64,000 nt of DNA, from the IMG/VR virus record IMGVR_UViG_3300032214_000566, positions 1 through 64,000 of that record. One strand, 5' to 3'. This document shows positions 5,845 through 58,790 of this stretch, one piece after another. The stretch is from a virus. The translations under genes and the position numbers were made by a program. Below the pieces are notes generated by a model. It saw only the letters and a list, made by a program, of their open reading frames with translations. It searched no databases and was not told the origin of the DNA. Within the stretch, counting starts at the first letter, position 1. Every line of letters begins with the position of its first letter.

Positions 5845-6462
5845 TTACCTAGACCAATAACCGTCACCCCAATTGTCTTCAGTCCACCAATCTTCTCTCA
5901 AAATAAATCCCTGTGTTGAAAGGAATTCACATAGTTCTTGTAGTGTTGGGCAACCTTCATACATTTCCAAATTATTAATCTCACAAAAAATATGGTCAAT
6001 ATTATTTAAAGTTTTTATTGAACCTTTTAATACTTCCAACTCAAATCCTTGGACATCAACCACTAAGACGTTCGCCCCTGTAATGTTAAAATGGTCTAAA
6101 GTTTTTATCTCCAAATAATCTGATTGCTCAAAATGAATGTTTGGATATTGTTCGAGATGTTTTTTTGGTTTACTAAATGATGCACTTTCACCCCTATTTT
6201 CATTTTCAGTCCATATCTGTTTCATTTCATTTTTTGAACCTAAACCATTATTATAAAAATGATTATTTGGTTTTTCCCCCAAATTATTTAATAACATTTT
6301 ATAAATGTCTCTTTGTGGTTCAAACCAATGAATGGGTATGTCCTTAAAAAATGTGGTCTGATATTCTTCGTACTCACCACCATCGTGAGCACCTACGTGG
6401 ATTATTCCCTTAACATTTGAGAAATCGTACTTATGTATGTAATTATATATTCCTATTATCAT
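5845..6462 (-). CDS. FkbM-family (Methyltransf_21) SAM-dependent methyltransferase
   Basis: IIHVGAHDG...FEP...TLD...VDVQGFELEVLKG motifs. Confidence 0.88.
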   Translation of the reverse strand: MIIGIYNYIHKYDFSNVKGIIHVGAHDGGEYEEYQTTFFKDIPIHWFEPQRDIYKMLLNNLGEKPNNHFYNNGLGSKNEMKQIWTENENRGESASFSKPKKHLEQYPNIHFEQSDYLEIKTLDHFNITGANVLVVDVQGFELEVLKGSIKTLNNIDHIFCEINNLEMYEGCPTLQELCEFLSTQGFILREDWWTEDNWGDGYWSR

Positions 6463-41850: not shown

Positions 41851-44061
41851 TTAAAAATCCAATTTAACAGGATACTGCTGAATACCTTGTCGTTTTTCAG
41901 GTGACTGTATCTTAGATACAACCATAAGCTCTTTTTCATCGTTGTAAAGAGCAACTTCCGACACATAAGGAGCTGACCCATCCCAAGTTGGGTTAGTAGA
42001 ACTTAAAAATTGAGTTTGTCCTAAATTACACAGATAATTCATTACATAGATAGTTGCTTGTATGTCAGTTTGTATCGCACCGTAGAAATAATATTCACCC
42101 CCAAAGTTTAGTGTCACCCCACTATTTGCCGGTGTAGGTAATGTAATATAATTATTCAAATTATATATCGAAGCATTATCATACATATCTTTAGTGATTT
42201 GTATTGTAGTACCTGTCAAACCTGTTACAGTTAATTTACCATTTAATGTTGATGCCGATAATTGTGACATAACATCAATTTCTTTCCATAGTGTTGGATT
42301 AGGTCTTGTGGTACCACTTGATACTTTTTGAACTAATACCTTCATCTCATTCGCAGTATACCCTGTAGGTATCGTTGGGTTGCCTGACACTAAGAAAGGA
42401 AACTCACTACCAAATTTTAAAAATATATTATAGGTTGGTTGCGTAGGGTCTAAAAGACTCGGTGTTAATTTAGTATAATAATTACAGTGTAGTGAATTAG
42501 TAAACGCGCTGTTATTGAATCTATACGTCACAAAAACGGACTCAGTATTTGCACTTAACAAACCTTCGTCTTCACCCATAACTCCGTCACACGCATTCGG
42601 TATGATTGTACCAACTTTAGGTGCCGGTAAGGTCCATGAACGATTAGATTTATAATTCAATGCCGCAATTATTTCGTCATCATCAAATATCACCATTTTA
42701 TAATCAGGGAAAACTTTACCAACTCTACTAGGGTACCCATTACCGTTAACGTGAGTATCCCATAAATTATAATATCTTAATCCAGGATTATTAAATTTAA
42801 CATCCTTTTTAGACTGTATATAATAAGGTTGGAATAAATCAACCTGTGTAAATCCACTTGGGTCTGTGTAAAAATCTTCACCAATAGTTGCATTAGTGTT
42901 CTTGTGCCACATCAACCAAGGAATACTTAATTTAAAGTTTCTTGCCTGTCCGGTCGCACCAGGATCAGCAGAATCATATTCTTGTTGTGCAAATTTTTCT
43001 CCATAGAAATTATCAATTGCTTGGTTAGTATAATGAATAATTGCTATAGATTTTTGGTCACTCGGACTTAATACTATATTTTGGTCCATTGAATTAGTAA
43101 AATAAACCGATCCCGTATCAACTTGACCATCATTGGATTTATACCCAAAATATTCTTTTGAACCTGTATATCCTGTTGATTTATAATAATTATAATCTAA
43201 AACTTGGTTCGAGAAGACACCCGCCGGAGACTCAGTCCAAGGAATATTCATATTCCATACTTTAACATCCGATTGGGAGACATCACAATTTGTTTCATAA
43301 TTAAATACGTTTGTTGCCCAATACAATTGTGGTGTTACCGAATCATACAATGCGGTCATACCCGAAGGGTAGAATAAAATATTGGAATAACCTGAATACC
43401 CCATAGACTGGAAGTTAGGTAATTGTCTATCGACTTGTATCGTCACTGTAGATGCGGTTGATGTGTTACCCGTGATACCAACAACGACATAAGTGAACAT
43501 AGGAGCATTACCACTTAAAGGAGTGATTGAATTTGTTGTGAACAGAGTCAATATCATTCCAGGTGTTACGGTTCCAGAAACAGAAGGGTTAATTGAATTA
43601 CTACTAATCACAAATGTAGTACCTGAGCTTAATCCACTATTCGCGACATTAAAATTAGGATTAATAGTGTATGATGACGAGGTATACGCACTAAAATTAA
43701 ATGTGTTTGCGGTTGACCCCGTAAAAAATCCTCTTGGTGCTGCAGAATTAAAGATATTATCAACAAAAGACGCATCATAAGGAATACCATAAGTAGTTCC
43801 TGAAGTTGAGTCTAAGAATAATGGGTATTTAACATGGTGTCTATTTTTTTCAGGTACCGGTGTTAAATTCTGAGCATTGTATTGTGGTGACAACACGTTT
43901 AATTGTGATGGAACCATATTGTTAACACAACCATAACAAACTTCACTATCACCTATCTGAAAATATGCGATATTGAATTTTCCTTGCGACATTTTTTTTC
44001 TTGCCGCATCCGTAAGTATTGTACTTATTAATGGTCCTGTTGTTTTATTTATGTATGACAT
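41851..44061 (-). CDS. Virion structural protein (baseplate or tail-associated)
   Basis: ILTDAARKK...YFQIGDSEV N-terminus and YVSEVALYND...VSK C-terminus, typical of tail-collar/baseplate proteins. Confidence 0.7.
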   Translation of the reverse strand: MSYINKTTGPLISTILTDAARKKMSQGKFNIAYFQIGDSEVCYGCVNNMVPSQLNVLSPQYNAQNLTPVPEKNRHHVKYPLFLDSTSGTTYGIPYDASFVDNIFNSAAPRGFFTGSTANTFNFSAYTSSSYTINPNFNVANSGLSSGTTFVISSNSINPSVSGTVTPGMILTLFTTNSITPLSGNAPMFTYVVVGITGNTSTASTVTIQVDRQLPNFQSMGYSGYSNILFYPSGMTALYDSVTPQLYWATNVFNYETNCDVSQSDVKVWNMNIPWTESPAGVFSNQVLDYNYYKSTGYTGSKEYFGYKSNDGQVDTGSVYFTNSMDQNIVLSPSDQKSIAIIHYTNQAIDNFYGEKFAQQEYDSADPGATGQARNFKLSIPWLMWHKNTNATIGEDFYTDPSGFTQVDLFQPYYIQSKKDVKFNNPGLRYYNLWDTHVNGNGYPSRVGKVFPDYKMVIFDDDEIIAALNYKSNRSWTLPAPKVGTIIPNACDGVMGEDEGLLSANTESVFVTYRFNNSAFTNSLHCNYYTKLTPSLLDPTQPTYNIFLKFGSEFPFLVSGNPTIPTGYTANEMKVLVQKVSSGTTRPNPTLWKEIDVMSQLSASTLNGKLTVTGLTGTTIQITKDMYDNASIYNLNNYITLPTPANSGVTLNFGGEYYFYGAIQTDIQATIYVMNYLCNLGQTQFLSSTNPTWDGSAPYVSEVALYNDEKELMVVSKIQSPEKRQGIQQYPVKLDF

Positions 44062-44089: not shown

Positions 44090-45715
44090 TTATCCCGTTG
44101 ATTGAGTTGATGATGTCGGAGCTAAAATACCCGTCTTAGTTATACTAAATGTTATTGGCGTTACATTCACATTTAACGTCTCACAAATAGTCTGATTACT
44201 CAATGTTACATTAGTAATCGAAATAGTATTATTTATCGTACCTGTTGGTGCACAACTTGTGGATCCATTAGCCACGACTACAGTCGAAACAACAGTCCCT
44301 TTAACCGTACCGACACCAATAATTTTAGCACTATATGTTCTTGTTATCGCACTTGTAACATAATTAGAATAATTCAATGTTGCACTACATGCGGTTGTTG
44401 TTGACGCAGATGTTGTGGATAAAGTAGTACCACTAATATATGTACCCCCTCCTGTTGTTCCCGTAGAAGACGTATTAGTTGTTGTTGCTTGGACACTTCC
44501 ATTACCTCTCACAACGTTAGTTATATGTGTGATATCAAACGTCAAAGTTTTTCCAACAGGTAAAGATGGGGTTACCGATACCTCCCACACAAAAGATTTA
44601 CTTAATGTGGTATTACTATTGGTAATTACGGTACCATTAGCCGGAACTAAATTTAAATTAATACTATAATTACTAACATTTGTGAGTGATTGTAAATTCA
44701 CGACATTCGCAGACACATTCCCAATAATATCTTGTACATATACGGTATATAACCCTGAAGGTAAATTTGTAAAAGTGTTCGATATTTGATAAGATGCTGA
44801 GTTATTATTTAATGCGTATTCATATGGAGGTGTACCTCCAATTACGTTAGTAACCTGTATTGTACCATTTTGTGCAACATCACAACTAGGAACATTACTA
44901 GTTATTATTGCAGATATCGAATCTTGACAATCACCTAAACTTAAAGTTACAGGTTGGTTTGAACCGGCGACTGTCCACGCACCAATAGGTGGGCTAACAG
45001 CCGATTGTAGAACAGGAGTACCTTGGAAATTTGGGCCCCAGTTAGTTATATTCCACATAGTTGTTCCCGTATTGAAATATATTGTTCTACTCGGACTTGA
45101 CCCCGTCCAAGACGGATACCCATTAAAAGTCGAAGCAGAATAAAACTGATATTGCCATTGGGTGTTGTTAAAGAATGTGGTTAAACACATACCTGAAACA
45201 TTTAATAATTCAGGAACCGTAGGTATACACTCTATACATGTGTCGAATGGTCCTGTTACCGTAGTTGCAGTATAATTGTAATATGTTTGTGCCGTATATA
45301 ATAACACACCGTTACTTATCCAACATCCACTTTGTAAATTTAAAGAGTATATTGTATTGGCAGAAAATTGATTCTCCATATCCGCCAAATAATACAAGAA
45401 CGAACCTGGCGACGTACAACTTTCAAACTCCTCGAGATAGAAAGTAACGTTTCCAACTGTACACGTTGTTGTTCCGGTAAAATCACCATAATAATCAACC
45501 ACTGTTGCGGTATAATCACCAACTTGTAGATTAGTTAAATTTTGACTATTAGATCCATTACTCCAAGATATTGAATATGGTGGAGTTCCTCCTGTTATTA
45601 CTAAACTTATTCCACCGTCGTTTGTAAATGGTGTGTAAGCATCAATTACCGAACACTCAACTCCCATCGGGAATAGAGTTATAATTTCACATGTATTACC
45701 ACTGTATGCTGGCAT
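44090..45715 (-). CDS. SprB-repeat, Cys/Thr-rich tail or fibre protein
   Basis: GGTPPYSISWSNG...NLQVGDYTATVVD and GGTPPYEY...FTNLPSGLYTVYVQD. Confidence 0.75.
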   Translation of the reverse strand: MPAYSGNTCEIITLFPMGVECSVIDAYTPFTNDGGISLVITGGTPPYSISWSNGSNSQNLTNLQVGDYTATVVDYYGDFTGTTTCTVGNVTFYLEEFESCTSPGSFLYYLADMENQFSANTIYSLNLQSGCWISNGVLLYTAQTYYNYTATTVTGPFDTCIECIPTVPELLNVSGMCLTTFFNNTQWQYQFYSASTFNGYPSWTGSSPSRTIYFNTGTTMWNITNWGPNFQGTPVLQSAVSPPIGAWTVAGSNQPVTLSLGDCQDSISAIITSNVPSCDVAQNGTIQVTNVIGGTPPYEYALNNNSASYQISNTFTNLPSGLYTVYVQDIIGNVSANVVNLQSLTNVSNYSINLNLVPANGTVITNSNTTLSKSFVWEVSVTPSLPVGKTLTFDITHITNVVRGNGSVQATTTNTSSTGTTGGGTYISGTTLSTTSASTTTACSATLNYSNYVTSAITRTYSAKIIGVGTVKGTVVSTVVVANGSTSCAPTGTINNTISITNVTLSNQTICETLNVNVTPITFSITKTGILAPTSSTQSTG

Positions 45716-45727
45716 TCTTATTAATTT

Positions 45728-45946
45728 TTAGTATACTTGGCAAAAAGTGCAACCACTTGAGCCATATAATTTTATTGCGTATTGTGTGGCAACCTCATAC
45801 ACCGTTGGTAACACAAAACTGTGTGGTAATGTGTTAATCGTATCAATGTATTGACAAGACGCACTATCGTCACAACTGTCACATATCCATAGATTTAGTG
45901 GTGTTGTTGCTCCGGTTATTGATTGTATTGTTACTTGTGTACTCAT
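45728..45946 (-). CDS. Small Cys-containing virion protein (paralog of the 51834 and 55841 N-domain)
   Basis: ITGATTPLNLWICD...C...IKLYGSSGC. Confidence 0.65.
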   Translation of the reverse strand: MSTQVTIQSITGATTPLNLWICDSCDDSASCQYIDTINTLPHSFVLPTVYEVATQYAIKLYGSSGCTFCQVY

Positions 45947-45950
45947 ATTT

Positions 45951-47567
45951 TTAACAGTTGCCGTTTACTCTACATAAAAGTGTTATTTCACCACTCGTAT
46001 CAACTTTATATACATAACCACCGTACTTGATATAATCCTCAACTATTGGTTTTGTAAGTGATGAATCTTGGTAAATAAAGACACCATCAACTAAAGATGT
46101 ACTACTAACTGAAGTGTAGAATGTTAAATCAACCCCACCGTCTGTTAATTGACAAACAGGACAGGAAACACTAAAACCACCTTGACCATTCCAAACATTA
46201 TATGATGGTGTAGGTGTTGGGGTCGGTGTTAAGCAATTTAAACAAGTACCATATGTTGTTGCGGTAGTTGCGGTAAATATTGGTTGGTTAGACCATCTAT
46301 ATTCAGGAGATGGGTAATAATTCACAAAACTACCGATATATGTATAACATCCAATAGTTTGGTCTTTTATCACATCACCCACAACAATATTACGTGGTGG
46401 GTATTCATCTTGAATTATCATCAAATTAGAATCACAAGCAGTAAATACAAATTGAGTATTAGGAGAATAAAATACTGTTGGTGTTGGTGTTGGACTTGTG
46501 GTTGGTGTTGGTGTTGGACTTGAAGTAGGTGAAGGTGTTGGTGTTGGTGTAATACAAACATTACATCCTGAATACACCTGAACAACTGAATTTAAATATC
46601 CACTAGCACTTCCTGTACTCTCACTTATATATGTCACACATTTTGGTAAATTATCTATCACCGCTTGGAATGTTGTTCCTGTATTTAAAGGAGTGGTTCC
46701 ACTTATTATTGGTCCTCCAACATAGTAAAAACTTCCATCATTACAATCCTGTAAAACTTTAATTGTTGGGCAATTAAAATTACCACTTTCAATCACAAAC
46801 GTCACGGTCTCACCAGTAATTGAGTACCCATAAGCAGGTGTCGGTGTAGGGGTAGGACTTGGGGTTGGTGTTGGTGTAGTATAGGCACTAAAGGTAATCG
46901 TTGCGGTAAATACGCAAGGGGTTGGAGTTGGTGATGGGGTAGGAGTCGGAGTTGGTGTTGAAGTTGGTGTAGGGGTAGGGGTTGGAGTATCAAAATTACA
47001 ATCCAAAATAACATCGAAATCCAAACTACTACATGGATCAGGTGTCGGGGATGGTGTTATACAACTACCCGTATATTGTATGGTTTCACTTAAATCGGGA
47101 CAATATGAACTAGTTGGTTCTGAACCGAAAAAATAACAAGTTCCTGTCAATGAACTACTTAAACACCATTTAATATTATTATAGAATATGTATCCACTAG
47201 TTGTTCCTGTCCAATATGGGTATCCATTATGTTCTCCAGCAACCACATAGTTACCACTATACCCACTGTAAGCATCATTATTAATATCAACACAAATTTG
47301 ATTACTACATGACGATCCGGTAAATGACAAACAAGTACTCGTATTACAATCTGCCTGTAACGTATAAACCCCACTAAGTGAAATAAATTGTATTGGTGTA
47401 AATCCTGTGGTATAAGCGGAAACTATTTCATAACATCCGTCAGGAACAACTGAGTCACCTGAGAATGAGAATACAGACCCAACCGATGAGGTGTATGCCC
47501 AACTAGCACCTGTATAGGTATATTGGTAAGCGGGGTAATTACAACCTTCAAATAATATATTTGCCAT
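45951..47567 (-). CDS. Cys-rich virion protein with several Pro-Thr (mucin-like) linkers
   Basis: TPTPTP tracts separate small Cys-rich domains. Confidence 0.75.
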   Translation of the reverse strand: MANILFEGCNYPAYQYTYTGASWAYTSSVGSVFSFSGDSVVPDGCYEIVSAYTTGFTPIQFISLSGVYTLQADCNTSTCLSFTGSSCSNQICVDINNDAYSGYSGNYVVAGEHNGYPYWTGTTSGYIFYNNIKWCLSSSLTGTCYFFGSEPTSSYCPDLSETIQYTGSCITPSPTPDPCSSLDFDVILDCNFDTPTPTPTPTSTPTPTPTPSPTPTPCVFTATITFSAYTTPTPTPSPTPTPTPAYGYSITGETVTFVIESGNFNCPTIKVLQDCNDGSFYYVGGPIISGTTPLNTGTTFQAVIDNLPKCVTYISESTGSASGYLNSVVQVYSGCNVCITPTPTPSPTSSPTPTPTTSPTPTPTVFYSPNTQFVFTACDSNLMIIQDEYPPRNIVVGDVIKDQTIGCYTYIGSFVNYYPSPEYRWSNQPIFTATTATTYGTCLNCLTPTPTPTPSYNVWNGQGGFSVSCPVCQLTDGGVDLTFYTSVSSTSLVDGVFIYQDSSLTKPIVEDYIKYGGYVYKVDTSGEITLLCRVNGNC

Positions 47568-47622
47568 GTAGGATTAACTTTATTATATAAATAATCAATT
47601 ATTCATTTTATTAAATAATTTA

Positions 47623-48420
47623 TCATAAGAATAACTCAATATATTCTCTCCACTCACACTTTATTAAATTATATAACTCAGGTTGTTTAGTATATGTAAA
47701 ATCAAACATCTTTTCATCGCTACCAACATAACCATTTGAAATGGCGTCAAGTGTTACATTTTTGAATGTTTCACATACTTCTATGACCCTATGTTTTGGT
47801 ACGAATAATGACCCTCCTTGTATGAATCTTGTTTGTGACAATGCGTGGAATTCCGCATCCTCGAATCTTACGTAATCGTGATGAGAGAAAAACGTAACTT
47901 TATCATTGTCTAACGAATTAATCTTATCTAAATTTGGCCATTTTACATTTTTTTTAGGGTGGTCATCTCTAATCACACCTGCATCCGCCCAAACATATAA
48001 ATCAGCATCAAATAACCCCTTTTTAAATGAATCCAAAATATAAAATAACTTACTAAACATCACAACATTATATAATGGTTTAATCATTTCTGGTACGTCA
48101 AAATGTATTTTCTTTTTAAATTCATCACTAGACATTAATTTATCCAATGGTTCAAAAAATGTTTTATACCCCTCTATTTCTTCTAATGGTTGTACAATCA
48201 TAATCGTCTTTTCTAAATTGGGGTCAACCTCTTTTCTGAATTCTAAAATTTGTTCTTTAAATTTTTCTTCTGTATAGATTATTAGATTAGTATCTAAAAA
48301 TAGAATACTCCTCATCCACCAAATATATGTGTGGTATGACATCGTGTAATTGTCCCATTTATCTCTACCTATATCAAATAGTGCTGTTACTATTGCTGTT
48401 TTTTTTATATCCATTCCCAA
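47623..48420 (-). CDS. WlaTC/HtrL-family glycosyltransferase
   Basis: IVTALFDIGR...YNVVMFSK...WADAG...IQGGSLF...GSDE. Confidence 0.8.
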   Translation of the reverse strand: MGMDIKKTAIVTALFDIGRDKWDNYTMSYHTYIWWMRSILFLDTNLIIYTEEKFKEQILEFRKEVDPNLEKTIMIVQPLEEIEGYKTFFEPLDKLMSSDEFKKKIHFDVPEMIKPLYNVVMFSKLFYILDSFKKGLFDADLYVWADAGVIRDDHPKKNVKWPNLDKINSLDNDKVTFFSHHDYVRFEDAEFHALSQTRFIQGGSLFVPKHRVIEVCETFKNVTLDAISNGYVGSDEKMFDFTYTKQPELYNLIKCEWREYIELFL

Positions 48421-49151
48421 TTTATTTTCATATGTTTATGTTGTATATCCACTTGATTAACGTCGAATAAATCTGAAGTATTATCAGATTTAATTAACGT
48501 ATTAAGTTTAAATCCGTACTTATTTAACATTGTCGGCACAAAACCCTCAGAGTAACCATGTAACCCTTGTTCGTGTATCTCTAATAGTTTTTTCATCGCT
48601 TTATTTGAAAATCTATTAGTTGGGAAAAATGAACCGAATTTTTCATTTACATCTTCAGGTAATAAATCCCCATCACCAGGAAATCTTTCAAACCACATAT
48701 GTTGTGATGTTGTTCTATTATCCAATTTTGGTATATTTTCTTGGGAAATAACATTTTCATTTTTAAAAATAAAGTACCCTAAGAAATCCGAGTCGTCCTT
48801 ATCGGTACCTTCAAAAAATAAATTCCAATCTTTCATTTTCACATCATCATCAAAAAACCAATAGTAATCGTAATTTGGGTGGTCAATATAAAAATTTAAC
48901 ATCCTAAGGTGAGCATAAAACCATATAATATTTCTATTCCCGTAAGAGTTCCAATAATGTTTTTTACTAACATCACCATAAAATTTTAATCTATCTCTTA
49001 ATTCTTTTTCGGTATATGTAAAACCAAGATTAAATGTCGAATCTTTACTGATATCCGAAATCCAAGTTATTTCTTTTGGGAAGTTTCTCCAATGGTTTGC
49101 ATACGCAGGGTACACATCAGGTGTTGTACAAACACAATAAACACTATTCAT
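48405..49151 (-). CDS. Putative GT-A glycosyltransferase (DUF3405-like)
   Basis: YDYYWFFDDDV DxD motif; RFSNKA; SEGFVPT; C-terminal His. Confidence 0.65.
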   Translation of the reverse strand: MNSVYCVCTTPDVYPAYANHWRNFPKEITWISDISKDSTFNLGFTYTEKELRDRLKFYGDVSKKHYWNSYGNRNIIWFYAHLRMLNFYIDHPNYDYYWFFDDDVKMKDWNLFFEGTDKDDSDFLGYFIFKNENVISQENIPKLDNRTTSQHMWFERFPGDGDLLPEDVNEKFGSFFPTNRFSNKAMKKLLEIHEQGLHGYSEGFVPTMLNKYGFKLNTLIKSDNTSDLFDVNQVDIQHKHMKINWEWI

Positions 49152-49962
49152 ATTCTTTTGTTATAATTTCATTCCATTCAGGGATTCTATTGAATTGGTG
49201 AACAATATCATAAACTTCTCCCTTATGATTGTAAAGTTTATTATCTTTAAGATAGGGTATACCCCCGTATCTATTTGTTAATGTATTTTTAAATCCCCAT
49301 GATTCAAAAAATTGTGTCGGTCCCCCAACTGCACAATGTAATGTCCAACCCTCATCAAAAGAGAAAATTTTCAATCTATCAATCTCATTTTTTGCAATCA
49401 TTATTATCAAAGCAGCTTGGTCTTTTATGTTGTGGGAGTTATTACTATTCTCACACATATCATTTAATTTAGTATACACCTTTATTAAAGATTCTTTTCT
49501 ACCACCAATAACTCCTGAACATATAATGTCATGAGTTCTACAAATTTCTAAATCTTCAGGAAAAACTTTAGCAATTACATCACCATTCCATGGTTCTTCA
49601 TTTATTCTTAATCCTTCAGACCCGACAAATACATCATACTCATCTTCCATTTTAATAAACGGGTCCGATTGGAACGCAACATCAAATACGTCAGTTACCA
49701 TAAATAAATCGTAATCTGATTCTGTAATAAAATCTAATGTGTGTTTAAGTCTTTTGTTATTAATATACCACGTATCTTCAACCGTTACCGGAATTGGTAT
49801 TATACCCAATTCGTGACATATTTGTATTTCATCGTCATTAGTATTGGCACAAAGTAAAACAACGTCCCCATTAGTGTGTTTTTTAAAACTATGTGACCAC
49901 ACTTTAATTTTATTTATATTCTTACTTATATTGTTAGATAACCCAACTAAAACTTTTTTCAT
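49144..49962 (-). CDS. Putative GT-A glycosyltransferase
   Basis: TDVFDVAFQSDPF, CSGVIGG, DQAAL, IVHQFNR. Confidence 0.75.
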   Translation of the reverse strand: MKKVLVGLSNNISKNINKIKVWSHSFKKHTNGDVVLLCANTNDDEIQICHELGIIPIPVTVEDTWYINNKRLKHTLDFITESDYDLFMVTDVFDVAFQSDPFIKMEDEYDVFVGSEGLRINEEPWNGDVIAKVFPEDLEICRTHDIICSGVIGGRKESLIKVYTKLNDMCENSNNSHNIKDQAALIIMIAKNEIDRLKIFSFDEGWTLHCAVGGPTQFFESWGFKNTLTNRYGGIPYLKDNKLYNHKGEVYDIVHQFNRIPEWNEIITKEYE

Positions 49963-49965
49963 ATT

Positions 49966-50538
49966 TTAACAATTATAAAGAGTTATCTCCATTTCCTCAT
50001 TGAATCCGAAAATACTTGGCCATAAGTACTCTATCATCCAGTTATTGTGTGAAACAATTTCTGTGGTGGTTATCGTACTTTGTAGTTTTTCGTAAAATTC
50101 TTTAGGATTTTTAAGTATTAATTCTTTAGCTAATATTGATTGTGTACCTGCAATAAATTTTATAGGCATCGTAATTTCAATATTATTCGCCTTAGCGTAT
50201 TCAATAGATTGGTTAATAATATCGTCACCATCTCTTACATATGTAATACCCAAAGGATAATATTTTAACTGACTATTAAAATTATTTACCTTATCTAAAA
50301 ATGAAGGACAATGGTCAAAGGGGTTATCTTGAGTGAAACAAACAAAATCAGGTAGGTTATCATAATTTCTTATTATATAATCAAAATAAACAATAGCATC
50401 ATAACCAACATTAGGAAAATTCAATTCGAACTTATCGTTGTTTTTAGGGTTTTTATTATATACAATGTATGGGTAATTTAAATTTTTAGTCCATTCCAAA
50501 TCTTCTTGGAAATGACAAATAACAACAACTAAATTCAT
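49966..50538 (-). CDS. DUF3431-family protein (glycosyltransferase-like)
   Basis: VVICHFQEDLEW...PNVG...YIIRNYDNLPD...FTQDNPFDH. Confidence 0.75.
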   Translation of the reverse strand: MNLVVVICHFQEDLEWTKNLNYPYIVYNKNPKNNDKFELNFPNVGYDAIVYFDYIIRNYDNLPDFVCFTQDNPFDHCPSFLDKVNNFNSQLKYYPLGITYVRDGDDIINQSIEYAKANNIEITMPIKFIAGTQSILAKELILKNPKEFYEKLQSTITTTEIVSHNNWMIEYLWPSIFGFNEEMEITLYNC

Positions 50539-51788
50539 TTTTTAAATTTTTCTTCTATTTTATCACACCAACCTTTAGAAGTTGAAAAGGGCCATAAGAC
50601 CCACGAGTGCGGTGTTTCCGCAGTTTGGAATGTTCTACATATTTCGATTTTGGTTCCTTCTGTTTCTAAGATCCTTTTAATCTCATTTCCATCAGCATCT
50701 TGTCTAAAGATGGTCTCACCACCTTCTCTATGAAATGCAACCACCCAAAACTCATAATCATTTTCAGGTAATTGGTCTTTACCCAAACTAAAACACTTAG
50801 TTACCTCTTTAGTGAAACTATCTATCCACTCCTCCTCATTTCGATAATCATAAGGGTTCGGAGGGTAGTTCTTTTGTAAAGTATAATCCTGAACTGACCT
50901 TTTTTCGAATAACAATCCTGAATAAATTTCATAGTCTCTTAAGGTTCTTTCAGTACCAAAACCATATTTACCAACATGACCTTCTTGGTCTAAACCATCC
51001 ATACCAAAAAGTTTTCTATTTAATAAGTGTGATGAATCATTTTTTAAATGCCATTCTTTGTCATCATCCCATTGTTTTGTTCTACCATTTCTAGTATATT
51101 CATGCCAAACCACAACTCTATGTGGATGAAATAAATCATATCCATGAGTGAAAGCCCTAACGGCTATTGATATCTCTTCTCCATGAAAGTAAAATTCAGG
51201 ATTATGTTGTACTTCTCTTGAGAATTGACCTAATGTGAAACAAAAGTGGGCAGAATAAAATCTTGACGGTACGGGCATGTTTATTTCTTCCCAATTAGGT
51301 ATCGTTTCAGGTAAGAAGAAAACCGCCCCCTCAGGTATAAATTTATCAAAAGCCATTCTCCAAGGTACTTGTACCCTTCCATGAGGGTCATTTTGTGGAT
51401 TATACGATGGTACGTAAGACGTTAATAAGGGTTTTGGAATACCCATATCTTTTAATTGGTTTAACATATTAATCAATGTTTCATCCCAATTTTTTTCAAA
51501 TCTCATATGAGAGTCTATTTGAAGGGTGTACTCCTCGTCATTATATAATTGTTGTATTTGGTGTCTAGCCCAACATGCCCCCTTAGATTCTTGATGTGGG
51601 ATATTAAGTACTTTAAACCTTTTGTCATCATCATATTCCGATAAATCATCGAAAGTATCGTCAGGGTGATATTGTTTTGCAATAGCAAAGACTAAATTTT
51701 CGGGGTATTTTGCATTTTCAATACAGCTCTTAATTGTTGGTTTTAATTCAGGATCACGGTACGATGCAATTTGGATAAAAATCTTCAT
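50535..51788 (-). CDS. Polypeptide GlcNAc-transferase, GT60/Skp1-GlcNAcT-like
   Basis: IFIQIASYRD, AKYPENL, SKGACWAR, LQIDSHMRF..NWD, FHGEE...RAFTHGYD. Confidence 0.85.
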   Translation of the reverse strand: MKIFIQIASYRDPELKPTIKSCIENAKYPENLVFAIAKQYHPDDTFDDLSEYDDDKRFKVLNIPHQESKGACWARHQIQQLYNDEEYTLQIDSHMRFEKNWDETLINMLNQLKDMGIPKPLLTSYVPSYNPQNDPHGRVQVPWRMAFDKFIPEGAVFFLPETIPNWEEINMPVPSRFYSAHFCFTLGQFSREVQHNPEFYFHGEEISIAVRAFTHGYDLFHPHRVVVWHEYTRNGRTKQWDDDKEWHLKNDSSHLLNRKLFGMDGLDQEGHVGKYGFGTERTLRDYEIYSGLLFEKRSVQDYTLQKNYPPNPYDYRNEEEWIDSFTKEVTKCFSLGKDQLPENDYEFWVVAFHREGGETIFRQDADGNEIKRILETEGTKIEICRTFQTAETPHSWVLWPFSTSKGWCDKIEEKFKK

Positions 51789-51833
51789 TTTATTTTTATT
51801 TAAAAAGTAATAAAATGGTTGGTTAAATAAATA

Positions 51834-53072
51834 CTATATGAATGCGGTTGTCACACTGCCAGGACTTTGTGTAGTGTACCCATAAGCTCTAGGGGTTGTT
51901 TGTAATAAAGTTATCGCATAAGGAGAAGTTTCATTAATTCGATATAAATTACCATTACTATCCATAATATGTATCTTATTTTCGTAACCAACAATACCAA
52001 TAGGTGTCGTCACTGAAGCTGAAATGTCAATTTCAAAATCTAATGTTGAACTTGCAGAATACACATATTGTTGTATATAACTTCCATCACCGTTACTACC
52101 TAACACTATAAAGTCACCTGTAGTTGATAATGCTATATCGTATATCAATGGGTTACCGGAAAACGCACCTGCCAATGAGGTTATTTTAGTATATGTGGCA
52201 GCACTTGACCCGATACCTACTTCAAATATCTGAGTTTCACCATCTCCCGAAACATAAAGACTGGCAATCAATCTTCCATCATTAAATGCCTCTAATCCTT
52301 GTCTACTATTATATGTTTGATAATTAGAAATTGCTCTATTATATGTTGCAACAACAGGTGATAATGTCAGATCCCATTCATCTATTGCCCCGTCAGGCGG
52401 GTTAATCCAAAACTTATCGGAGGTATTCGCAATAGACCCCACTTGAGTAAATCCTGATAATGTTATAGGTCCGGTTTCAGTATTGGTTCCAACATCATAT
52501 ACGTAATAGTCATCAACATCAAAATCCTTAGCAATTACAAATTTAGGGTCGGTTGTTGGTGTAGGTGTTGGCGTTGGACTAGTTGTTGGTGTAGGAGTTG
52601 GTGTTTTTGTTGGGGTTGGAGTAGGACTTGTTGTTGGTGTAGGAGTTGGTGGGATAGGTGTTGATGTTGGGGTCGGAGTAGGGCTCGTTGTTGGTGTAGG
52701 CGTTGGTGGAATAGGCGTTGGTGTTGGGGTAGACGTAGGGCTAACTGTTGGCGTTGGTGTAGGACTAACTGTTGGCGTTGGTGTAGGGCTGATAGTCGGG
52801 CTTGGGGTCGGTGTAGGTGTAGGGCTGATGGTCGGTGTTGGTGTCGGGGCAGGAATACAAATTTGATTTTGCGTAAAAATACATCCATTTGTGTCGACCA
52901 ATTTTAAACCAACATAATAATAGTTAGGGAAAAAATAATCAGTATCCACCACAACTGTAGGTGGTATTTGACAACTACCTGATATTAAAAAGCAAGACGT
53001 ATATCCAGTATCACATAAAAATACATCATATGGACTTGTTCCACTTGTTACACCAGTTATTTGTATTATCAT
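51834..53072 (-). CDS. Virion protein: small Cys N-domain, about 100-aa Pro-Thr stalk, C-terminal beta-rich (propeller-like) head
   Basis: Translation. Confidence 0.75.
52546..52852 (-). repeat. Pro-Thr/Ser coding repeat (mucin-like)
   Basis: (PT)n with TISP/TVSP/TTSP units; synonymous codons are diversified. Confidence 0.9.
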
Positions 53073-53078
53073 CTATTT

Positions 53079-55832
53079 TTATAATTCTTGTACATTTAAA
53101 GTTGGTGCTGTTGATTCCCCAAATTTAATACTACCACCACTTATCTCATTAGCCTTTAAATAGTACGTATATGTTCCAGCGGCAGGCGCATCTATATAAC
53201 TCATACCAAATGGTGTGTTTTCACTTGCGGCACTACCTTCAGTATGCACAATAGCCCCAAGTTGTGTAGAGTCTCTCCAAAATTGTAATTTACACCAATA
53301 ACCAGCACCTGTATTTTCAGCATCTCCATAAGCACTTATTCTAACAGGATTACCATATGTCGTTATAGTAGTACTAAGTATTGTTTGTGGGCCCCCACTT
53401 GCTGATAATGTGACGGAAGCCCCTCCACCAACTTGTGAATAGTTAATACTACTTTTTACTCTACCAGTTACTGTTAAATTACCCGCATCTGTTAAACTAA
53501 GTAAAGTACTATTATATGCGTTATTAATAATTTCAAAACTACCAAAAATATCCGTTCTAAATGTTTTAGATGGTGTTGTTGCACCAGCTGCCGTGTTAGT
53601 TACTCTAATAAAATCAGTATAACCCGTACCTCCAATAGTTCCACTACCACTAAACGTTAATAATGCGGTTGTTGAATTTCCACTTGTTGTTATGGTACCT
53701 TTAGTTCCTGTTATCTTATTACTATTACCATTAAACGTTGTTGCCGATATGTCATTACCAATTATAGTTGACCCGGTTATTGCACCATTTGTGGTTATTT
53801 GAGAACCAACAATCTCACCTTTGGCCGTTATAAACGACGTTATACCACCTATTGCGTTTATCCCTTCAAATAAATTTGTTGAGATGTCAGGGTTACCTGT
53901 GCCATTTTTAATTGAGAATGCACCTATACCTGATGTCGTTATAATTTCAGGGTCTGCTGAATTGTCGTATGCCTGTTGTAATGTTGTTGTTGATAAACCA
54001 CCTGAACCTCCAAGTAACTCACCAAATTTAGATACTTGCGTAAATACAGCATCATCAACATCAGTTAAATCCGTTGCTCCGTCTTTAACCGTCAATAAAC
54101 CAATTAATATTCCGTTTGCTAAGTTATTGGGATAAACCACAAAAATCTCACTCTGGATTGCGGCTATCGCCTTTGCTAAAGTTGGGTAATACGATTGTCC
54201 ATATTGTATTCTAACAAGTCCTGTTGGGAATTGATAAATTCTTTGTGTCGTGTAGTTTCCTGTACCAGGCACCGCAGTAACAACTCCACCAACATCATAA
54301 TTTGTTGTGTCGATTGTTGTTGTATTAGTAAATGTTCCACCCGTTTGTGTTCTATATTGGAAAGTTGTTGGTGAGGTTCCTGATAAATTAACATTATTTG
54401 GTGATAATTGATTTGTTGACCAATTAATTCCGTTACCCCATAATGTGCCCGCGGATTTATCAATATTTAAATTAACTCCGTTTGCAGATACAATAACACC
54501 ATCATTAATTAAATTTATTGGGTCCCACAAATCACGAAGTGCCGACATTGGTGACACGTCATAATCAACCGTATTATTAACATTTTGTATTGTTGTTCTA
54601 TTAGGGTGAACTACTTTACCTAAATAAATGTTTTCTCTTCTTTGTTGTGATGTTGGAAATGTTCCTTGTTGGAATACTGTTCCTCCACTATTAACTAATA
54701 TATAAGTTGAGTCAGATAATGATATCCCTGTGATTGAATATGCCGTATTTCCCGTGTATATAATATTTCTAACACTAGGTAATGTTGCAAATTCATATGT
54801 ATTTGATACAATCCATCCTCTCATTGGTGAAATTGAAATTGTTGTACCTGACGTGTAAGTTAAACCTGTAAATTCGTATGTCCCTGTTGAAATAACATTA
54901 CCTTCAAGGATATTTCTTTCAATGTCGGTTAACGAAAGATTAATATCTTCATTGTTAATATTAACATATATGGCACCTATTGTTGTCCCCGATTTTAAAG
55001 TGTACCCAATTTCATTTGTTCTCGCACTGAAAGCCAAGGAAGACGTTGTTGTTACATAACCACCTGGTATTGTGTCCGATAAATATATAATACCACCGGG
55101 AGTATTTGAAACCGTAACTCCGCTTAATACCCCATTATTAATTGTGTATCCCGTTTGACCATTTAATATGTCATTTTCAATAAGTCCAATAACTTGATTG
55201 TTACCAGATTTAGACGCAATCGCCAATTGTACTGATGGTGTAATATTAGACGAACTAACTAATTTAACAGCACTACCTTTAAGTAAGGTGACACCCGTTT
55301 CATTAATAACCGTTGTTCTTAAAATACCAAGGTCATTTGACGGAGATATTCCACTTGTCCCCGCAGAACCTGATGTTCCGCTAGTTCCTGAAGATCCCGA
55401 CGTACCTGATGTACCACTTGTTCCTGAAGATCCTGACGTACCGTTAGCTCCTGATGTTCCACTAGTTCCTGACGATCCTGACGTACCGTTAGCTCCTGAT
55501 GTTCCACTAGTTCCTGACGAACCTGATGATCCTCTAGTCCCTGAAGTACCGCTAGTTCCTGATGAACCTGAAGCTCCCGTAACACCTGATGAACCTGATG
55601 AACCTGATGAACCTCTAGTACCTGAAGTTCCACTACTACCTGATATTCCACTTGTTCCTGAAGACCCATTAGTACCTGTACCCCCACTTATCGATGCGGT
55701 TACAGATGAAAAATAAATAGCACTTGTTACACCAGTTACTTCATTCGTATAATCAACTATAACCATTATACTATTAGGTGACCCCGAACCAATAAATGGT
55801 AGTTGTGATATTCTTGAATCTTGTTGTGACAT
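53079..55832 (-). CDS. Tail fibre-like protein with Gly-X-Y (GTS/GSS) collagen-like segment
   Basis: RISQLP N-terminus, (GTS/GSS)n, TTLQQAYD, C-terminal DAPAAGTYTY domain. Confidence 0.75.
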   Translation of the reverse strand: MSQQDSRISQLPFIGSGSPNSIMVIVDYTNEVTGVTSAIYFSSVTASISGGTGTNGSSGTSGISGSSGTSGTRGSSGSSGSSGVTGASGSSGTSGTSGTRGSSGSSGTSGTSGANGTSGSSGTSGTSGANGTSGSSGTSGTSGTSGSSGTSGTSGSAGTSGISPSNDLGILRTTVINETGVTLLKGSAVKLVSSSNITPSVQLAIASKSGNNQVIGLIENDILNGQTGYTINNGVLSGVTVSNTPGGIIYLSDTIPGGYVTTTSSLAFSARTNEIGYTLKSGTTIGAIYVNINNEDINLSLTDIERNILEGNVISTGTYEFTGLTYTSGTTISISPMRGWIVSNTYEFATLPSVRNIIYTGNTAYSITGISLSDSTYILVNSGGTVFQQGTFPTSQQRRENIYLGKVVHPNRTTIQNVNNTVDYDVSPMSALRDLWDPINLINDGVIVSANGVNLNIDKSAGTLWGNGINWSTNQLSPNNVNLSGTSPTTFQYRTQTGGTFTNTTTIDTTNYDVGGVVTAVPGTGNYTTQRIYQFPTGLVRIQYGQSYYPTLAKAIAAIQSEIFVVYPNNLANGILIGLLTVKDGATDLTDVDDAVFTQVSKFGELLGGSGGLSTTTLQQAYDNSADPEIITTSGIGAFSIKNGTGNPDISTNLFEGINAIGGITSFITAKGEIVGSQITTNGAITGSTIIGNDISATTFNGNSNKITGTKGTITTSGNSTTALLTFSGSGTIGGTGYTDFIRVTNTAAGATTPSKTFRTDIFGSFEIINNAYNSTLLSLTDAGNLTVTGRVKSSINYSQVGGGASVTLSASGGPQTILSTTITTYGNPVRISAYGDAENTGAGYWCKLQFWRDSTQLGAIVHTEGSAASENTPFGMSYIDAPAAGTYTYYLKANEISGGSIKFGESTAPTLNVQEL
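55350..55690 (-). repeat. Gly-Thr-Ser / Gly-Ser-Ser triplet repeat with a near-exact 45-nt duplication
   Basis: Gly every third residue for about 110 aa. Confidence 0.9.
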
Positions 55833-55840
55833 AAATTTTT

Positions 55841-56119
55841 TTACAAAATAATTTTATAACCGTTTTCTTGTAATAAAAAGAAACCGTTCTCTTGTAATAA
55901 ATAGTATATTGGGCAACTTACTAATTGGAAAAATTCACAATTAGTTGAATCAATTACTTTGACCATTAGAACTTCAGCGGTTTGGAATAAAGGACTTAGT
56001 GTAAATGTACCTCCAGAAGTTCCAATATTTTGACAGTTGTTACCATTCTCGTCACATATAAAAAACGTATACGGCGGGGTACCTCCTGTTTCACCTGTGA
56101 TTATTAAGTAACTACCCAT
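55841..56119 (-). CDS. Small virion protein (paralog family) with repeated LLQENG motif
   Basis: GGTPPYTFFICDENGNNC; YLLQENGFFLLQENGY. Confidence 0.65.
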   Translation of the reverse strand: MGSYLIITGETGGTPPYTFFICDENGNNCQNIGTSGGTFTLSPLFQTAEVLMVKVIDSTNCEFFQLVSCPIYYLLQENGFFLLQENGYKIIL

Positions 56120-56120
56120 T

Positions 56121-58790
56121 TTAACAAGTGAACTTTGTGATTATTATACCATCCCCGTCTACTTGTACAACATTTCTTGTAGTTATTGGACAACTATTTG
56201 ATAAATAGATTCTTGCCCATCCGCCATTTTTAGGGTCTAAGTTAGTACCAACATATCTAGTCGTTAATGTCGGATTAGTGTAAACAACATTACCTAAATT
56301 AATTGTGGCTCCTGTAGTATATAATTGAACATTACATGGTGAGTCAATACAAATATCTTCATCTGCAGTGTTATAATATTCTCCATTAGTATACCAAGCA
56401 ACACCAGCATAAGTTGGAGTTGGTGTAGGTGTTGGTGTAGGAGTTGAACTAATAGTTGGTGTAGGAGTTGGGGTTGGTGTCATTGTAGGAGTTGGGGTTG
56501 GTGTTTTAATTTGGTCGCAACTTATATCATAAGTTATAGATAATTCCAATTTAAAATAGTTATTACCCATTTGGTCACAATCACAAACTATGATTAATAC
56601 ATTATTTAATACATTAACCGTATATGATGTGATTTGTGGAATACTTCCTAATATGGTTTCTATCGCTCTTTGCCAAGCTCCGTCATCACTGTATATAAAG
56701 TTTTGAGTTGTTGCGGAACCATTTATCGTAAAGACCGCCTCTAAAACCGCAGTATTTAAAATACAATTAGTATATCCCGTAGTTAAATCAATAAATCCTT
56801 CATTTAACATTTTAGAAATCGATCTCTTAGTTCCTGAAGTATTAACAAAAGTTTTATTAAATATATTGTATCTTGACCTACCCGATACTATTACTTGATT
56901 ACATGTTATTGTAAAAGGCCAATAATTAGTACAACCGTCACTATCAGTAATAGTTACATCATATGTCCCACCTGAAAGACCTGTTACAGTACTTCCCGTA
57001 CTCCCTGATGGTGTATTATCAGACCAATTATATGTGAATGGTGGTGTGCCTTCAAAAATAGTTACAGTTGCTACACCATCATTAGCATTTTTACATTCTG
57101 TTTTAGTAAGTGTGGTTGATAAACTGCCACTTAAGGGTACGTTCAAATTTAAAGACACCGTACAATTTTCAGAATCGGTAACTTGTAATATATAATCACC
57201 AGGAGTTAAATAATTAAATGTGTAGGAACTAAACGGCACATCAATTAAATTTTGTCCATTACTTAAAACATAATCCAAAGGAGCGGTATACCCCGTACCA
57301 ACTTCAACCGATATTACTCCGTTTGGTGACCCGCAAGAAGATGGTGTTGTTGTGGCTGTTAAATTAAATTTATCAACAGCACTTATTTCAATCGTTTCTG
57401 TGTAAAGACAACTACTTGATTGTCCTGAAATTTTTAATAAATAAGTATCAGAGACTAAATTACCGAACGTTACATTTTGATTTTGAGTGTATTCCTCATA
57501 AACAACATTCGTATTTTGACCCGATAATGAGTATAAATAAAATCCATATAACCCAGTAATTGTTGTTTTTAAAGATGCGTTGTTTTTACTACAAATAGAG
57601 TTTGTTATTACATTTTTGACATCCCTAAAACCATTTACAGTATTAAGTGTTGTTAAAATATTTAAAGTACAGAAATTAGCATCTTTTACCAAAATAGAAT
57701 AGTCCCCACTTGGTAATCCACTTATCGTGAAAGTGTCTGATAGTGTAACTCCAAAGTTACCAGATGACGCAGAATAATAGAAAGGTACTGTACCACCCGT
57801 TAAAGTTATCTCTATTTGGCCGTTACTATCAAAACAACTTGGTGTTGTGTTATTTATTAACCCAATACCTAATTGTTCGGCGGACCCGACATAACTGGAT
57901 TTTGTTACACCACAACCTTTAACATCAGTCACAGTTACTGAGTATTCACCAATAGTTAACCCTGTTATTGTTTGACCTGTATTTCCATTAGACCATAAAT
58001 ACGTATAAGGACCGACACCTGTAATACCAGTCACCGCCAATTTACCCGTATCCAATAAACATCTCGATGTATCAACTTTCCATAGACCAAAATCAAGTTC
58101 AGTACTCGCCGAAATAACCACATTTTCAGTTCTTGCTGTTGTAATACTATCATCCGATATTAAAACGTAATAAATACCCTCATCTAACTCTGTAAAGGTA
58201 TATGGGAATGTTTCAGCTGTCTCAATTAATAATAATGATTCATCTTTATATAATAATAAATCATATGGTGGGAAAAGTGACGTACCACTAACAGTTAGGT
58301 ATCCATTTGTTAACCCACAATTGGTCCCGTTAGCGTCTATAATATTGCCTTCATTACAAGTCCCGACAGCAATATTGATGTATGTTTCGGCGTTTTGATA
58401 ACCTAAAGTATCATTTAACCTAAACACATATGTCGTGGCACTAAGACCGGTATATGTAATTTCAGTAGTACCTGTTTGTGTACTTAATCCGTGACCAATA
58501 GGGTATATAGGGTCAACCGTGTACGGTGGATAACCACCTGTTGGGTTTATGACTATAGTTCCCGTCGGTGAGTCACACGTACCCGTTACGGTAAAATAAT
58601 ACCCAATAACAGGTAAATCAATACAGTTAGACGTACAAGTACTTCCAGAGTCAATAACTACGTTTACAACACTTCCGGAATATGATTGATTAAGACATAC
58701 GGTTTCTCCGGAAGATACACCAACTCTAGCAACCCCACAACAATCTATATAAGAGTAAACACCATTAGTATATCCAGTAATACAAGCCAT
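56121..58790 (-). CDS. Multi-SprB-repeat virion protein with a C-terminal PT linker
   Basis: Repeated units such as GPYTYLWSNG..ITGLTIGEYSVTVTDVKGC; TPTPTP near the C-terminus. Confidence 0.8.
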   Translation of the reverse strand: MACITGYTNGVYSYIDCCGVARVGVSSGETVCLNQSYSGSVVNVVIDSGSTCTSNCIDLPVIGYYFTVTGTCDSPTGTIVINPTGGYPPYTVDPIYPIGHGLSTQTGTTEITYTGLSATTYVFRLNDTLGYQNAETYINIAVGTCNEGNIIDANGTNCGLTNGYLTVSGTSLFPPYDLLLYKDESLLLIETAETFPYTFTELDEGIYYVLISDDSITTARTENVVISASTELDFGLWKVDTSRCLLDTGKLAVTGITGVGPYTYLWSNGNTGQTITGLTIGEYSVTVTDVKGCGVTKSSYVGSAEQLGIGLINNTTPSCFDSNGQIEITLTGGTVPFYYSASSGNFGVTLSDTFTISGLPSGDYSILVKDANFCTLNILTTLNTVNGFRDVKNVITNSICSKNNASLKTTITGLYGFYLYSLSGQNTNVVYEEYTQNQNVTFGNLVSDTYLLKISGQSSSCLYTETIEISAVDKFNLTATTTPSSCGSPNGVISVEVGTGYTAPLDYVLSNGQNLIDVPFSSYTFNYLTPGDYILQVTDSENCTVSLNLNVPLSGSLSTTLTKTECKNANDGVATVTIFEGTPPFTYNWSDNTPSGSTGSTVTGLSGGTYDVTITDSDGCTNYWPFTITCNQVIVSGRSRYNIFNKTFVNTSGTKRSISKMLNEGFIDLTTGYTNCILNTAVLEAVFTINGSATTQNFIYSDDGAWQRAIETILGSIPQITSYTVNVLNNVLIIVCDCDQMGNNYFKLELSITYDISCDQIKTPTPTPTMTPTPTPTPTISSTPTPTPTPTPTYAGVAWYTNGEYYNTADEDICIDSPCNVQLYTTGATINLGNVVYTNPTLTTRYVGTNLDPKNGGWARIYLSNSCPITTRNVVQVDGDGIIITKFTC

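Follow-up and report, generated by a model that had tools for sequence, protein, structure and literature searches.

A GT60-led glycosyltransferase cassette beside proline-threonine tracts in the fibre and baseplate gene block of an uncultured freshwater jumbo phage, with a predicted role in virion O-glycosylation

Gene Content of the Locus

The stretch analysed here (the window, 64,000 nucleotides) is the first 64 kb of a 96,880-bp IMG/VR virus record, IMGVR_UViG_3300032214_000566, from an uncultured freshwater jumbo phage; CheckV puts the completeness of the record at 33%, implying a genome of ~290 kb. On its minus strand, at 51788-47623, lie five co-oriented genes headed by a GT60-family enzyme, each abutting the next or overlapping it by 4–16 nt, which are predicted here to encode a system for glycosylating the virion's own proteins. 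A preliminary description, made from the letters alone, had set this contiguous cassette within a structural module, with long proline-threonine (PT) tracts in both immediate neighbours and a third in the gene at 56121-58790, and all of these points were borne out by our searches (Table 1). The minus strand from 41.8 to 73.8 kb forms a single co-oriented block of fibre and baseplate genes, which contains a baseplate wedge gene and is bordered by replication genes on either side (RuvC and primase below; RNR, DnaB, exonuclease, UvsX, and SSB above). The block is also filled with several Ser/Thr- and Cys-rich proteins, two of which carry SprB repeats, while the capsid and tail-tube genes lie outside this partial record. 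A promoter and terminator scan stayed at background level, and operons are not definable from that scan. An open reading frame (ORF)-based scan of the whole record found PT tracts in exactly three ORFs.

Table 1. Features of the cassette, its PT-bearing neighbours, and other genes of the record (positions count from the first nucleotide of the window; aa, amino acids; pLDDT, predicted local distance difference test).
Feature	Position	Strand	Evidence and remarks
417-aa GT60-family enzyme	50535..51788	-	PF11397 "GlcNAc", E 1.6e-68, 232 bits vs. cut-off 21
190-aa DUF3431 protein	49966..50538	-	PF11913, 4e-15, 56.6 bits vs. cut-off 25
272-aa GT-A fold enzyme	49144..49962	-	AlphaFold pLDDT 93.9; conserved D91-x-x-D94
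248-aa GT-A fold enzyme	48405..49151	-	AlphaFold pLDDT 93.2; invariant DDD motif 101-103
265-aa HtrL/YibB-family protein	47623..48420	-	PF09612, 3.9e-27, 96 bits vs. cut-off 24.1
412-aa protein immediately upstream of GT60	51834..53072	-	101-aa PT stalk, aa 76-176, ~nt 52545-52847
538-aa Cys-rich protein directly downstream of HtrL	45951..47567	-	Three PT tracts, aa 193-217, 229-244, 339-364 (25, 16, 26 aa)
889-aa fibre-type protein, 4 kb from cassette	56121..58790	-	4 SprB repeats, PF13573 4.3e-20; 31-aa PT tract, aa 763-793, ~nt 56412-56504
917-aa tail fibre	53079..55832	-	phrog_16641 tail fiber, 2.3e-23; collagen-like G-X-Y region ~aa 48-166, PF01391 Collagen 5.7e-15
92-aa small protein	55841..56119	-	N-terminal "ITGxTGGTPPY...C" module, common to the 412-aa PT protein and many neighbours
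541-aa SprB-repeat, Ser/Thr-rich fibre-type protein	44090..45715	-	PF13573, 1.6e-11; syntenic in 22 loci
736-aa conserved protein, ends the structural block before RuvC and primase	41851..44061	-	327 relatives in viral contigs
gp6-like baseplate wedge	71922-73763 (genome)		phrog_219
FkbM-family methyltransferase	5845-6462	-	TIGR01444, 52 bits vs. cut-off 37.7

Enzymes of the Cassette

The first gene of the cassette encodes a 417-aa protein whose match to PF11397 falls in two stretches (profile positions 2-44 and 99-350) and which also matches phrog_24687 (3.9e-165). A DxH motif (D92-S93-H94) is invariant in a 15-sequence alignment that includes the homologues of phages XacN1 and RAS14, and a conserved C-terminal extension of ~120 aa continues past the Pfam domain. 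The strength of the profile match together with the invariant motif confirms the GT60-like identity noted at first sight. GT60 enzymes are polypeptide α-N-acetylglucosamine (GlcNAc) transferases, placing GlcNAc directly onto polypeptide hydroxyls, with mucin-type initiation in Dictyostelium and T. cruzi, and Gnt1 of this family acts on a hydroxyproline of Skp1 (PMC8724618, PMC6939170). The 417-aa protein is predicted to be an initiating polypeptide α-N-acetylhexosamine (HexNAc, here GlcNAc) transferase.

The 272-aa and 248-aa proteins had no match in Pfam and have hundreds of metagenomic relatives. Their structural models matched many GT-A enzymes in Foldseek with a probability of 1.0 and have conserved acidic motifs, which places both in the GT-A fold. 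The 272-aa model resembles retaining GT-A glycosyltransferases, matching the catalytic domain of UGGT (GT24), alpha3GalT/ABO (GT6), and glycogenin/LgtC (GT8) with E-values of 4e-9 to 1e-7 and template modelling (TM) scores of 0.5-0.59. The top Foldseek matches of the 248-aa model were GT31 enzymes (B3GalT5/6, B3GNT2, CHSY3); in VIA-align (Z 10-11), GT31, GT25-like, GT15, and other families were tied within 1 Z unit, and the closest viral folds were giant-virus glycosyltransferases.

The 265-aa protein scored 106 bits against TIGR02192, under the equivalog cut-off of 264.9, and is thus a member of the HtrL family by its Pfam match, not an equivalog of E. coli YibB. Relatives of the DUF3431 protein are found fused to HtrL (P0366, P0367, P0373, P0388, P0376 set), and the same set includes one GT90-DUF3431 fusion and one 3,030-aa protein with GT32 domains and ankyrin repeats. 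These fusions tie the cassette genes to one pathway and may provide a lead on the function of the DUF3431 family. The earlier count of five glycosyltransferase-like genes thus holds for three of them by family or fold (GT60 and the two GT-A proteins), while DUF3431 and HtrL are connected to glycan enzymes only through fusions and context. Searches of the PDB with GT60, HtrL, and DUF3431 (phmmer and profile) gave no useful match and no solved GT60 structure, and hhalign comparison of shallow HtrL and DUF3431 profiles with the two GT-A alignments returned nothing informative. All five cassette proteins are devoid of transmembrane or other hydrophobic segments and look soluble.

Pro-Thr Tracts and Candidate Acceptor Proteins

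Given its position and architecture, with an N-terminal Cys module followed by the PT stalk and a C-terminal globular domain, the 412-aa protein is the prime candidate acceptor, and the 538-aa and 889-aa proteins are further candidates. Homologues of the 538-aa protein have PT tracts at the same positions although overall identity is ~50%, and those of the 889-aa protein, found in 22 related loci, have tracts of 15-57 aa. As expected of a mucin-type system, dense Thr/Ser/Pro repeats are here encoded together with a putative initiating transferase. Signal peptides are absent from the PT proteins; with soluble enzymes on the other side, this suggests that enzyme and substrate would meet in the cytoplasm.

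Among the neighbouring proteins, the tail fibre at 53079 had been described as carrying some 110 aa of Gly-Thr/Ser repeats and counted among the mucin-like proteins. The region exists (~118 aa), but it is collagen-like rather than mucin-like. The record-wide ORF scan found no PT tract in the 541-aa SprB-repeat protein. The cluster of the 92-aa protein (c2) has 67 members in 38 loci, 11 of them with PT tracts. The N-terminal module of this protein is SprB-repeat-like and recurs at the start of many small and PT-bearing proteins beside the cassette that otherwise have nothing in common (c2 and c30 ORFs, L004-L083); it may be a common attachment domain. Family searches with the 736-aa protein at the end of the block were without a match.

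Cassette Layout in Related Phages

The 417-aa GT60 has 323 confirmed relatives in IMG/VR, on contigs of up to 304 kb, and GT60 relatives in the protein collection amount to at least 7,699 clusters at 90% identity. None of the isolated phages is close: megablast of the 15-kb region gave no match, and the DNA polymerase B of the clade has only distant matches (24-30% identity).

We compared the layout of 80 related phage loci and found a constant order of PT-tract fibre-type ORFs, GT60, 0-13 variable small genes, and then usually HtrL. Wherever the cassette is present GT60 heads it, and HtrL, found in 70 loci, is usually last. PT-tract ORFs lie on the GT60 strand in 74 loci (the other six are cut off upstream), and in most loci the ORF directly upstream of GT60 has a PT tract. 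The variable genes encode GT25, GT10 fucosyltransferase-like, GT2, GT61, and GT32 proteins, CmcI-type sugar O-methyltransferases, and a PRK-like kinase, along with weak GT11- and GT4-like matches; the DUF3431 and two GT-A genes seen in the window are one variant of this middle section, shared by five loci. GT60 itself is 65-89% identical across the clade, whereas its neighbours drop to ~50%. HtrL is ~265 aa in the subclade of the window and elsewhere part of a fusion of ~560 aa or longer, and it is followed either by the 538-aa PT protein (in the window's subclade) or by a small gene and then DNA polymerase B. Every near-complete relative examined has GT60. A prolyl hydroxylase (PF13640) occurs in only one of four complete relatives, so that we rejected hydroxyproline as a general acceptor and regard Thr/Ser as the likely one.

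Several of these loci stand out. In the subclade of the window, the position upstream of the 538-aa PT protein is filled by one or the other of two GT60 types (L228, L237-L243, L250-L258, and others), one ~57-72% identical and followed by HtrL, the other ~40% identical and without HtrL. The most extreme tract, of 590 residues, lies in a 1,383-aa ORF upstream of GT60 (L053:3491-7642), and the longest cassette has 13 genes after GT60, including a GT61 and a PRK/uridine-kinase-like protein (L048:11250-20700).

Co-Occurrence of GT60 and PT Tracts

The preliminary description had suggested checking whether GT60 and PT-repeat structural genes co-occur across jumbo phages, and they do. We counted (TP)4 matches as DNA patterns with at most one mismatch, a pattern that also matches antisense (Gly-Val)n. 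Five complete relatives have 6-26 matches each, and three cultured phages with GT60 homologues of 43-46% identity have 30 (XacN1), 21 (Xoo-sp13), and 20 (RAS14), giving eight GT60-positive phages with 6-30 matches. Ten jumbo phages in which PF11397 is absent (phiKZ, G, RSL1, KVP40, P-SSM2, Atu_ph07, PTm1, RaK2, phiCbK, and SPN3US) have 0-1. With reading frames checked, 37 of 45 arbitrarily sampled IMG/VR records bearing the pattern have true PT ORFs, and eight of these 37 (22%) have GT60. PT tracts, then, do not need GT60, yet GT60 genomes are rich in PT tracts.

One complete 108-kb phage (G022) was considered as an independent case and rejected, as the pattern matches, all of them 0.7 kb from its divergent GT60, encode antisense (Gly-Val)n. 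In this phage (L305:7303-10539), a 339-aa GT60-like gene with a DAH motif lies directly downstream of a gene for a 735-aa fibre-like protein, which contains long runs of (Gly-Val)n and is Hint/intein-like at its C-terminus, and the pair stands beside portal, protease, and capsid genes.

In bacteria, we collected 80 loci with GT60 homologues of 38-68% identity and scanned four whole genomes (4.5-12.8 Mb) for (TP)4. Among the matches listed, all lay 0.07-4 kb from the GT60 homologue: in Ralstonia sp. 25C (6.0 Mb), the 47 matches listed of 58 are all in one ORF 1.06 kb away; in Jiulongibacter sediminis (4.5 Mb), the sole match is in an ORF 191 bp away; in a Saprospiraceae metagenome-assembled genome (12.8 Mb), all 59 are in two ORFs directly upstream; and in Paraburkholderia ferrariae (7.9 Mb), all 43 are in one ORF 4 kb away. 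That the tracts should fall within a few kb of GT60 by chance in four genomes of several megabases each has a negligible probability, and we take this exclusivity as the strongest evidence pointing to a functional tie between the GT60 family and (TP)n tracts. The PT proteins of the Ralstonia and Paraburkholderia genomes are VgrG spikes of the type VI secretion system (T6SS), with Phage_GPD, gp5 OB, and Gp5_trimer_C domains, and VgrG is likewise the PT protein near GT60 at three further Burkholderiales loci (Achromobacter, Paraherbaspirillum). The VgrG tracts measure 39-124 residues, lie 1-4 kb from GT60 (L369, L356, L352, L338), and are C-terminal where mapped (Ralstonia, Paraburkholderia).

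Among cultured phages, the virions of XacN1 gave at least two Schiff-stained bands, for which its authors suggest the phage's two glycosyltransferases are responsible (Yoshikawa et al., PMC5852040). One of these two, ORF334, is a GT60 homologue (46% identical) and lies near the baseplate-wedge genes ORF323/324 and the 3,313-aa ORF325, which has (TP)4 DNA-pattern matches near its C-terminal end, their frame being unchecked. The gene after this GT60, ORF333 (L003:10409-12706), encodes a 765-aa carbamoyltransferase, of which Xoo-sp13 and RAS14 also have homologues; this suggests that the XacN1-like lineage has a carbamoylated sugar.

Proposed Function and Alternatives

Taken from the genes, the explanation we favour, and consider probable, is that the phage O-glycosylates its own fibre and baseplate proteins, with GT60 starting on the PT stalks and the other four enzymes extending. 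In the host cytoplasm, the soluble 417-aa GT60 would transfer a first HexNAc, probably α-GlcNAc from UDP-GlcNAc, to Thr (or Ser) hydroxyls in the PT stalks of the 412-aa, 538-aa, and 889-aa fibre- or baseplate-associated proteins, and possibly of others. The two GT-A enzymes, DUF3431, and HtrL would then extend or decorate this sugar. As the middle of the cassette is swapped freely between related phages, the glycan borne by this type of stalk would differ from lineage to lineage. The preliminary description had proposed just such an initiating transferase with extending enzymes; the cassette architecture, the co-occurrence in phages, the (TP)n exclusivity in bacteria, and the Schiff-stained bands of XacN1 all support it, and it keeps the standing of a prediction. 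Which sugar is attached, which residue accepts it, in what order the later enzymes act, and how the phage profits are our inference from these data.

Several observations weigh against this explanation. The phage counts are drawn from few independent lineages, some PT genes lie 17-75 kb from GT60 in complete relatives, and true PT ORFs are present in three complete small phages that lack PF11397. In most of the distant relatives, the cassette adjoins DNA polymerase B and not fibre genes. No clade member without GT60 was found, those contigs that lack it near the 736-aa gene having it elsewhere or being at most 56% complete. A non-shadowed PT ORF occurs within 8 kb of GT60 in only 24 of the 80 bacterial loci. 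Finally, the Schiff-stained bands of XacN1 are not assigned to proteins, and XacN1 also encodes a GT9.

The particle proteins might instead be glycosylated elsewhere, on Ser/Thr-rich surfaces, the collagen-like fibre region, or the capsid and tail-tube ends, leaving the PT tracts as plain extended linkers. The fibre-type proteins here contain 23-28% Ser+Thr outside the tracts, mycobacteriophage glycans sit at capsid and tail-tube C-termini, as related in PMC12619734, and PT linkers exist without GT60. We nevertheless think this unlikely, as two findings implicate the tract itself: the exclusivity of (TP)n beside GT60 in the four bacterial genomes, and the difference in (TP)4 counts between jumbo phages with and without GT60.

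Alternatively, the enzymes might act during infection on a glycan of the host (lipopolysaccharide (LPS), capsule, or S-layer) or on one of its proteins, for instance as a barrier to superinfection, and the fibre region would simply be one that tolerates accessory genes. This would suit the likeness of the variable genes to LPS and capsule enzymes (GT25, GT10, GT32, and HtrL from LPS-core loci), and a review of jumbo phages interprets similar clusters as modifying capsule or O-antigen (PMC7824862). However, a membrane-anchored initiating transferase, a flippase, and a polymerase are all missing, the five proteins being soluble, and the conservation of GT60 (65-89% identity) while its neighbours diverge fits an enzyme with a core role that acts on a conserved acceptor of the phage. 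As host remodelling also leaves the coupling to PT tracts without explanation, we rate it more improbable still.

Least probable, and very much so, is sugar hypermodification of the phage DNA, like that by the T4 glucosyltransferases and the TET-associated glycosyltransferases (TAGT): DNA is the classical substrate of phage glycosyltransferases, in distant relatives DNA polymerase B comes two genes after the end of the cassette, the XacN1 GT60 is near its polymerase, and the C-terminal half of the relatives' 560-aa HtrL fusions has a weak, sub-threshold TAGT match (2e-4), but the proteins of the window match no DNA-glycosyltransferase family (T4 AGT/BGT, TAGT), a thymidylate-synthase-family hydroxymethylase is absent from this record and from a 98%-complete GT60-bearing relative (G002), the GT60 members described in PMC8724618 and PMC6939170 include none acting on DNA, and XacN1 DNA was mapped with BssHII, NaeI, and SpeI, digests that speak against bulky cytosine modification.

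Returning to glycosylation of the stalks, a broader idea is possible, and we offer it tentatively as one we doubt more than we trust. GT60 may lead a eukaryote-like "mucin-type" module dedicated to the PT stalks of contractile injection machines, both phage fibres and baseplates and T6SS VgrG, whose hypervariable middle would act as a glycan "serotype" for each phage lineage, with effects on adsorption, on host range, or on how well the phage withstands the proteases and defences of its host. The glycocalyx roles of the preliminary description (stiffening of fibres, resistance to proteases, engagement of the uptake machinery of a Bacteroidota host) are speculation. So too is the idea that the FkbM methyltransferase caps the glycan; the gene is present, as TIGR01444 confirms, and lies 40 kb from the cassette, to which no link was found.

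If stalk glycosylation is correct, a very abundant group of freshwater jumbo phages would make mucin-like glycoprotein stalks itself, by an initiating step otherwise known only from protists. Swappable glycan genes in the receptor-binding module would add a glycan layer to host recognition and phage antigenicity, one that sequence-based prediction of host range misses. That enzyme and tract are paired on T6SS VgrG spikes as well suggests a modification of injection machines that is more widespread and has gone unrecognised. With XacN1, Xoo-sp13, RAS14, and CM1 in culture, the idea is directly testable.

Comparison with Known Systems

Glycosylation of phage virions is already known in mycobacteriophages and has been proposed for XacN1. 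The literature we searched gave nothing relevant on GT60 in phages or on O-glycosylated tail fibres, and we did not meet in it the link from GT60 to PT stalks, a hypervariable cassette inside a fibre module, or the VgrG parallel. In a paper on freshwater "moraphages", four groups of glycosyltransferases are listed among the core genes, with no role assigned to them.

The glycosyltransferases of mycobacteriophages modify the phages' own structural proteins, at the C-termini of the capsid and tail-tube proteins (Freeman et al. 2023, as cited in PMC12619734). The system described here would be alike in using phage-encoded enzymes for its own structural proteins. It differs in the predicted targets (internal PT stalks of fibre and baseplate proteins), in the GT60 initiator, and in the hypervariable cassette.

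XacN1 comes closer, with a GT60 beside baseplate-wedge genes and a giant protein matching the (TP)4 pattern, and with Schiff-positive virions. It belongs to another lineage with another host, however, and a carbamoyltransferase and a GT9 replace the DUF3431 protein, the two GT-A enzymes, and HtrL; its authors did not connect PT tracts with GT60 (PMC5852040). Chloroviruses and mimivirus likewise decorate their own capsid or fibrils with virus-encoded cytoplasmic glycosyltransferases, but these are eukaryotic viruses with other glycosyltransferase families and other acceptors.

The protist GT60 systems share with the cassette a strong PF11397 match, the DxH motif, and the lack of a ricin-like lectin domain, and the phage enzyme appears soluble and cytoplasmic like Gnt1. 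Thr/Pro-rich repeat acceptors and extension by further GT-A enzymes (both predicted here) are also common to the two, and the Skp1 glycan pathway is echoed by the fucosyl-, GT32-, and GT8-like enzymes of related cassettes. The phage enzyme differs in being phage-encoded, in its setting in the bacterial cytoplasm, in its C-terminal extension of ~120 aa, and in that the prolyl hydroxylase is not conserved alongside it.

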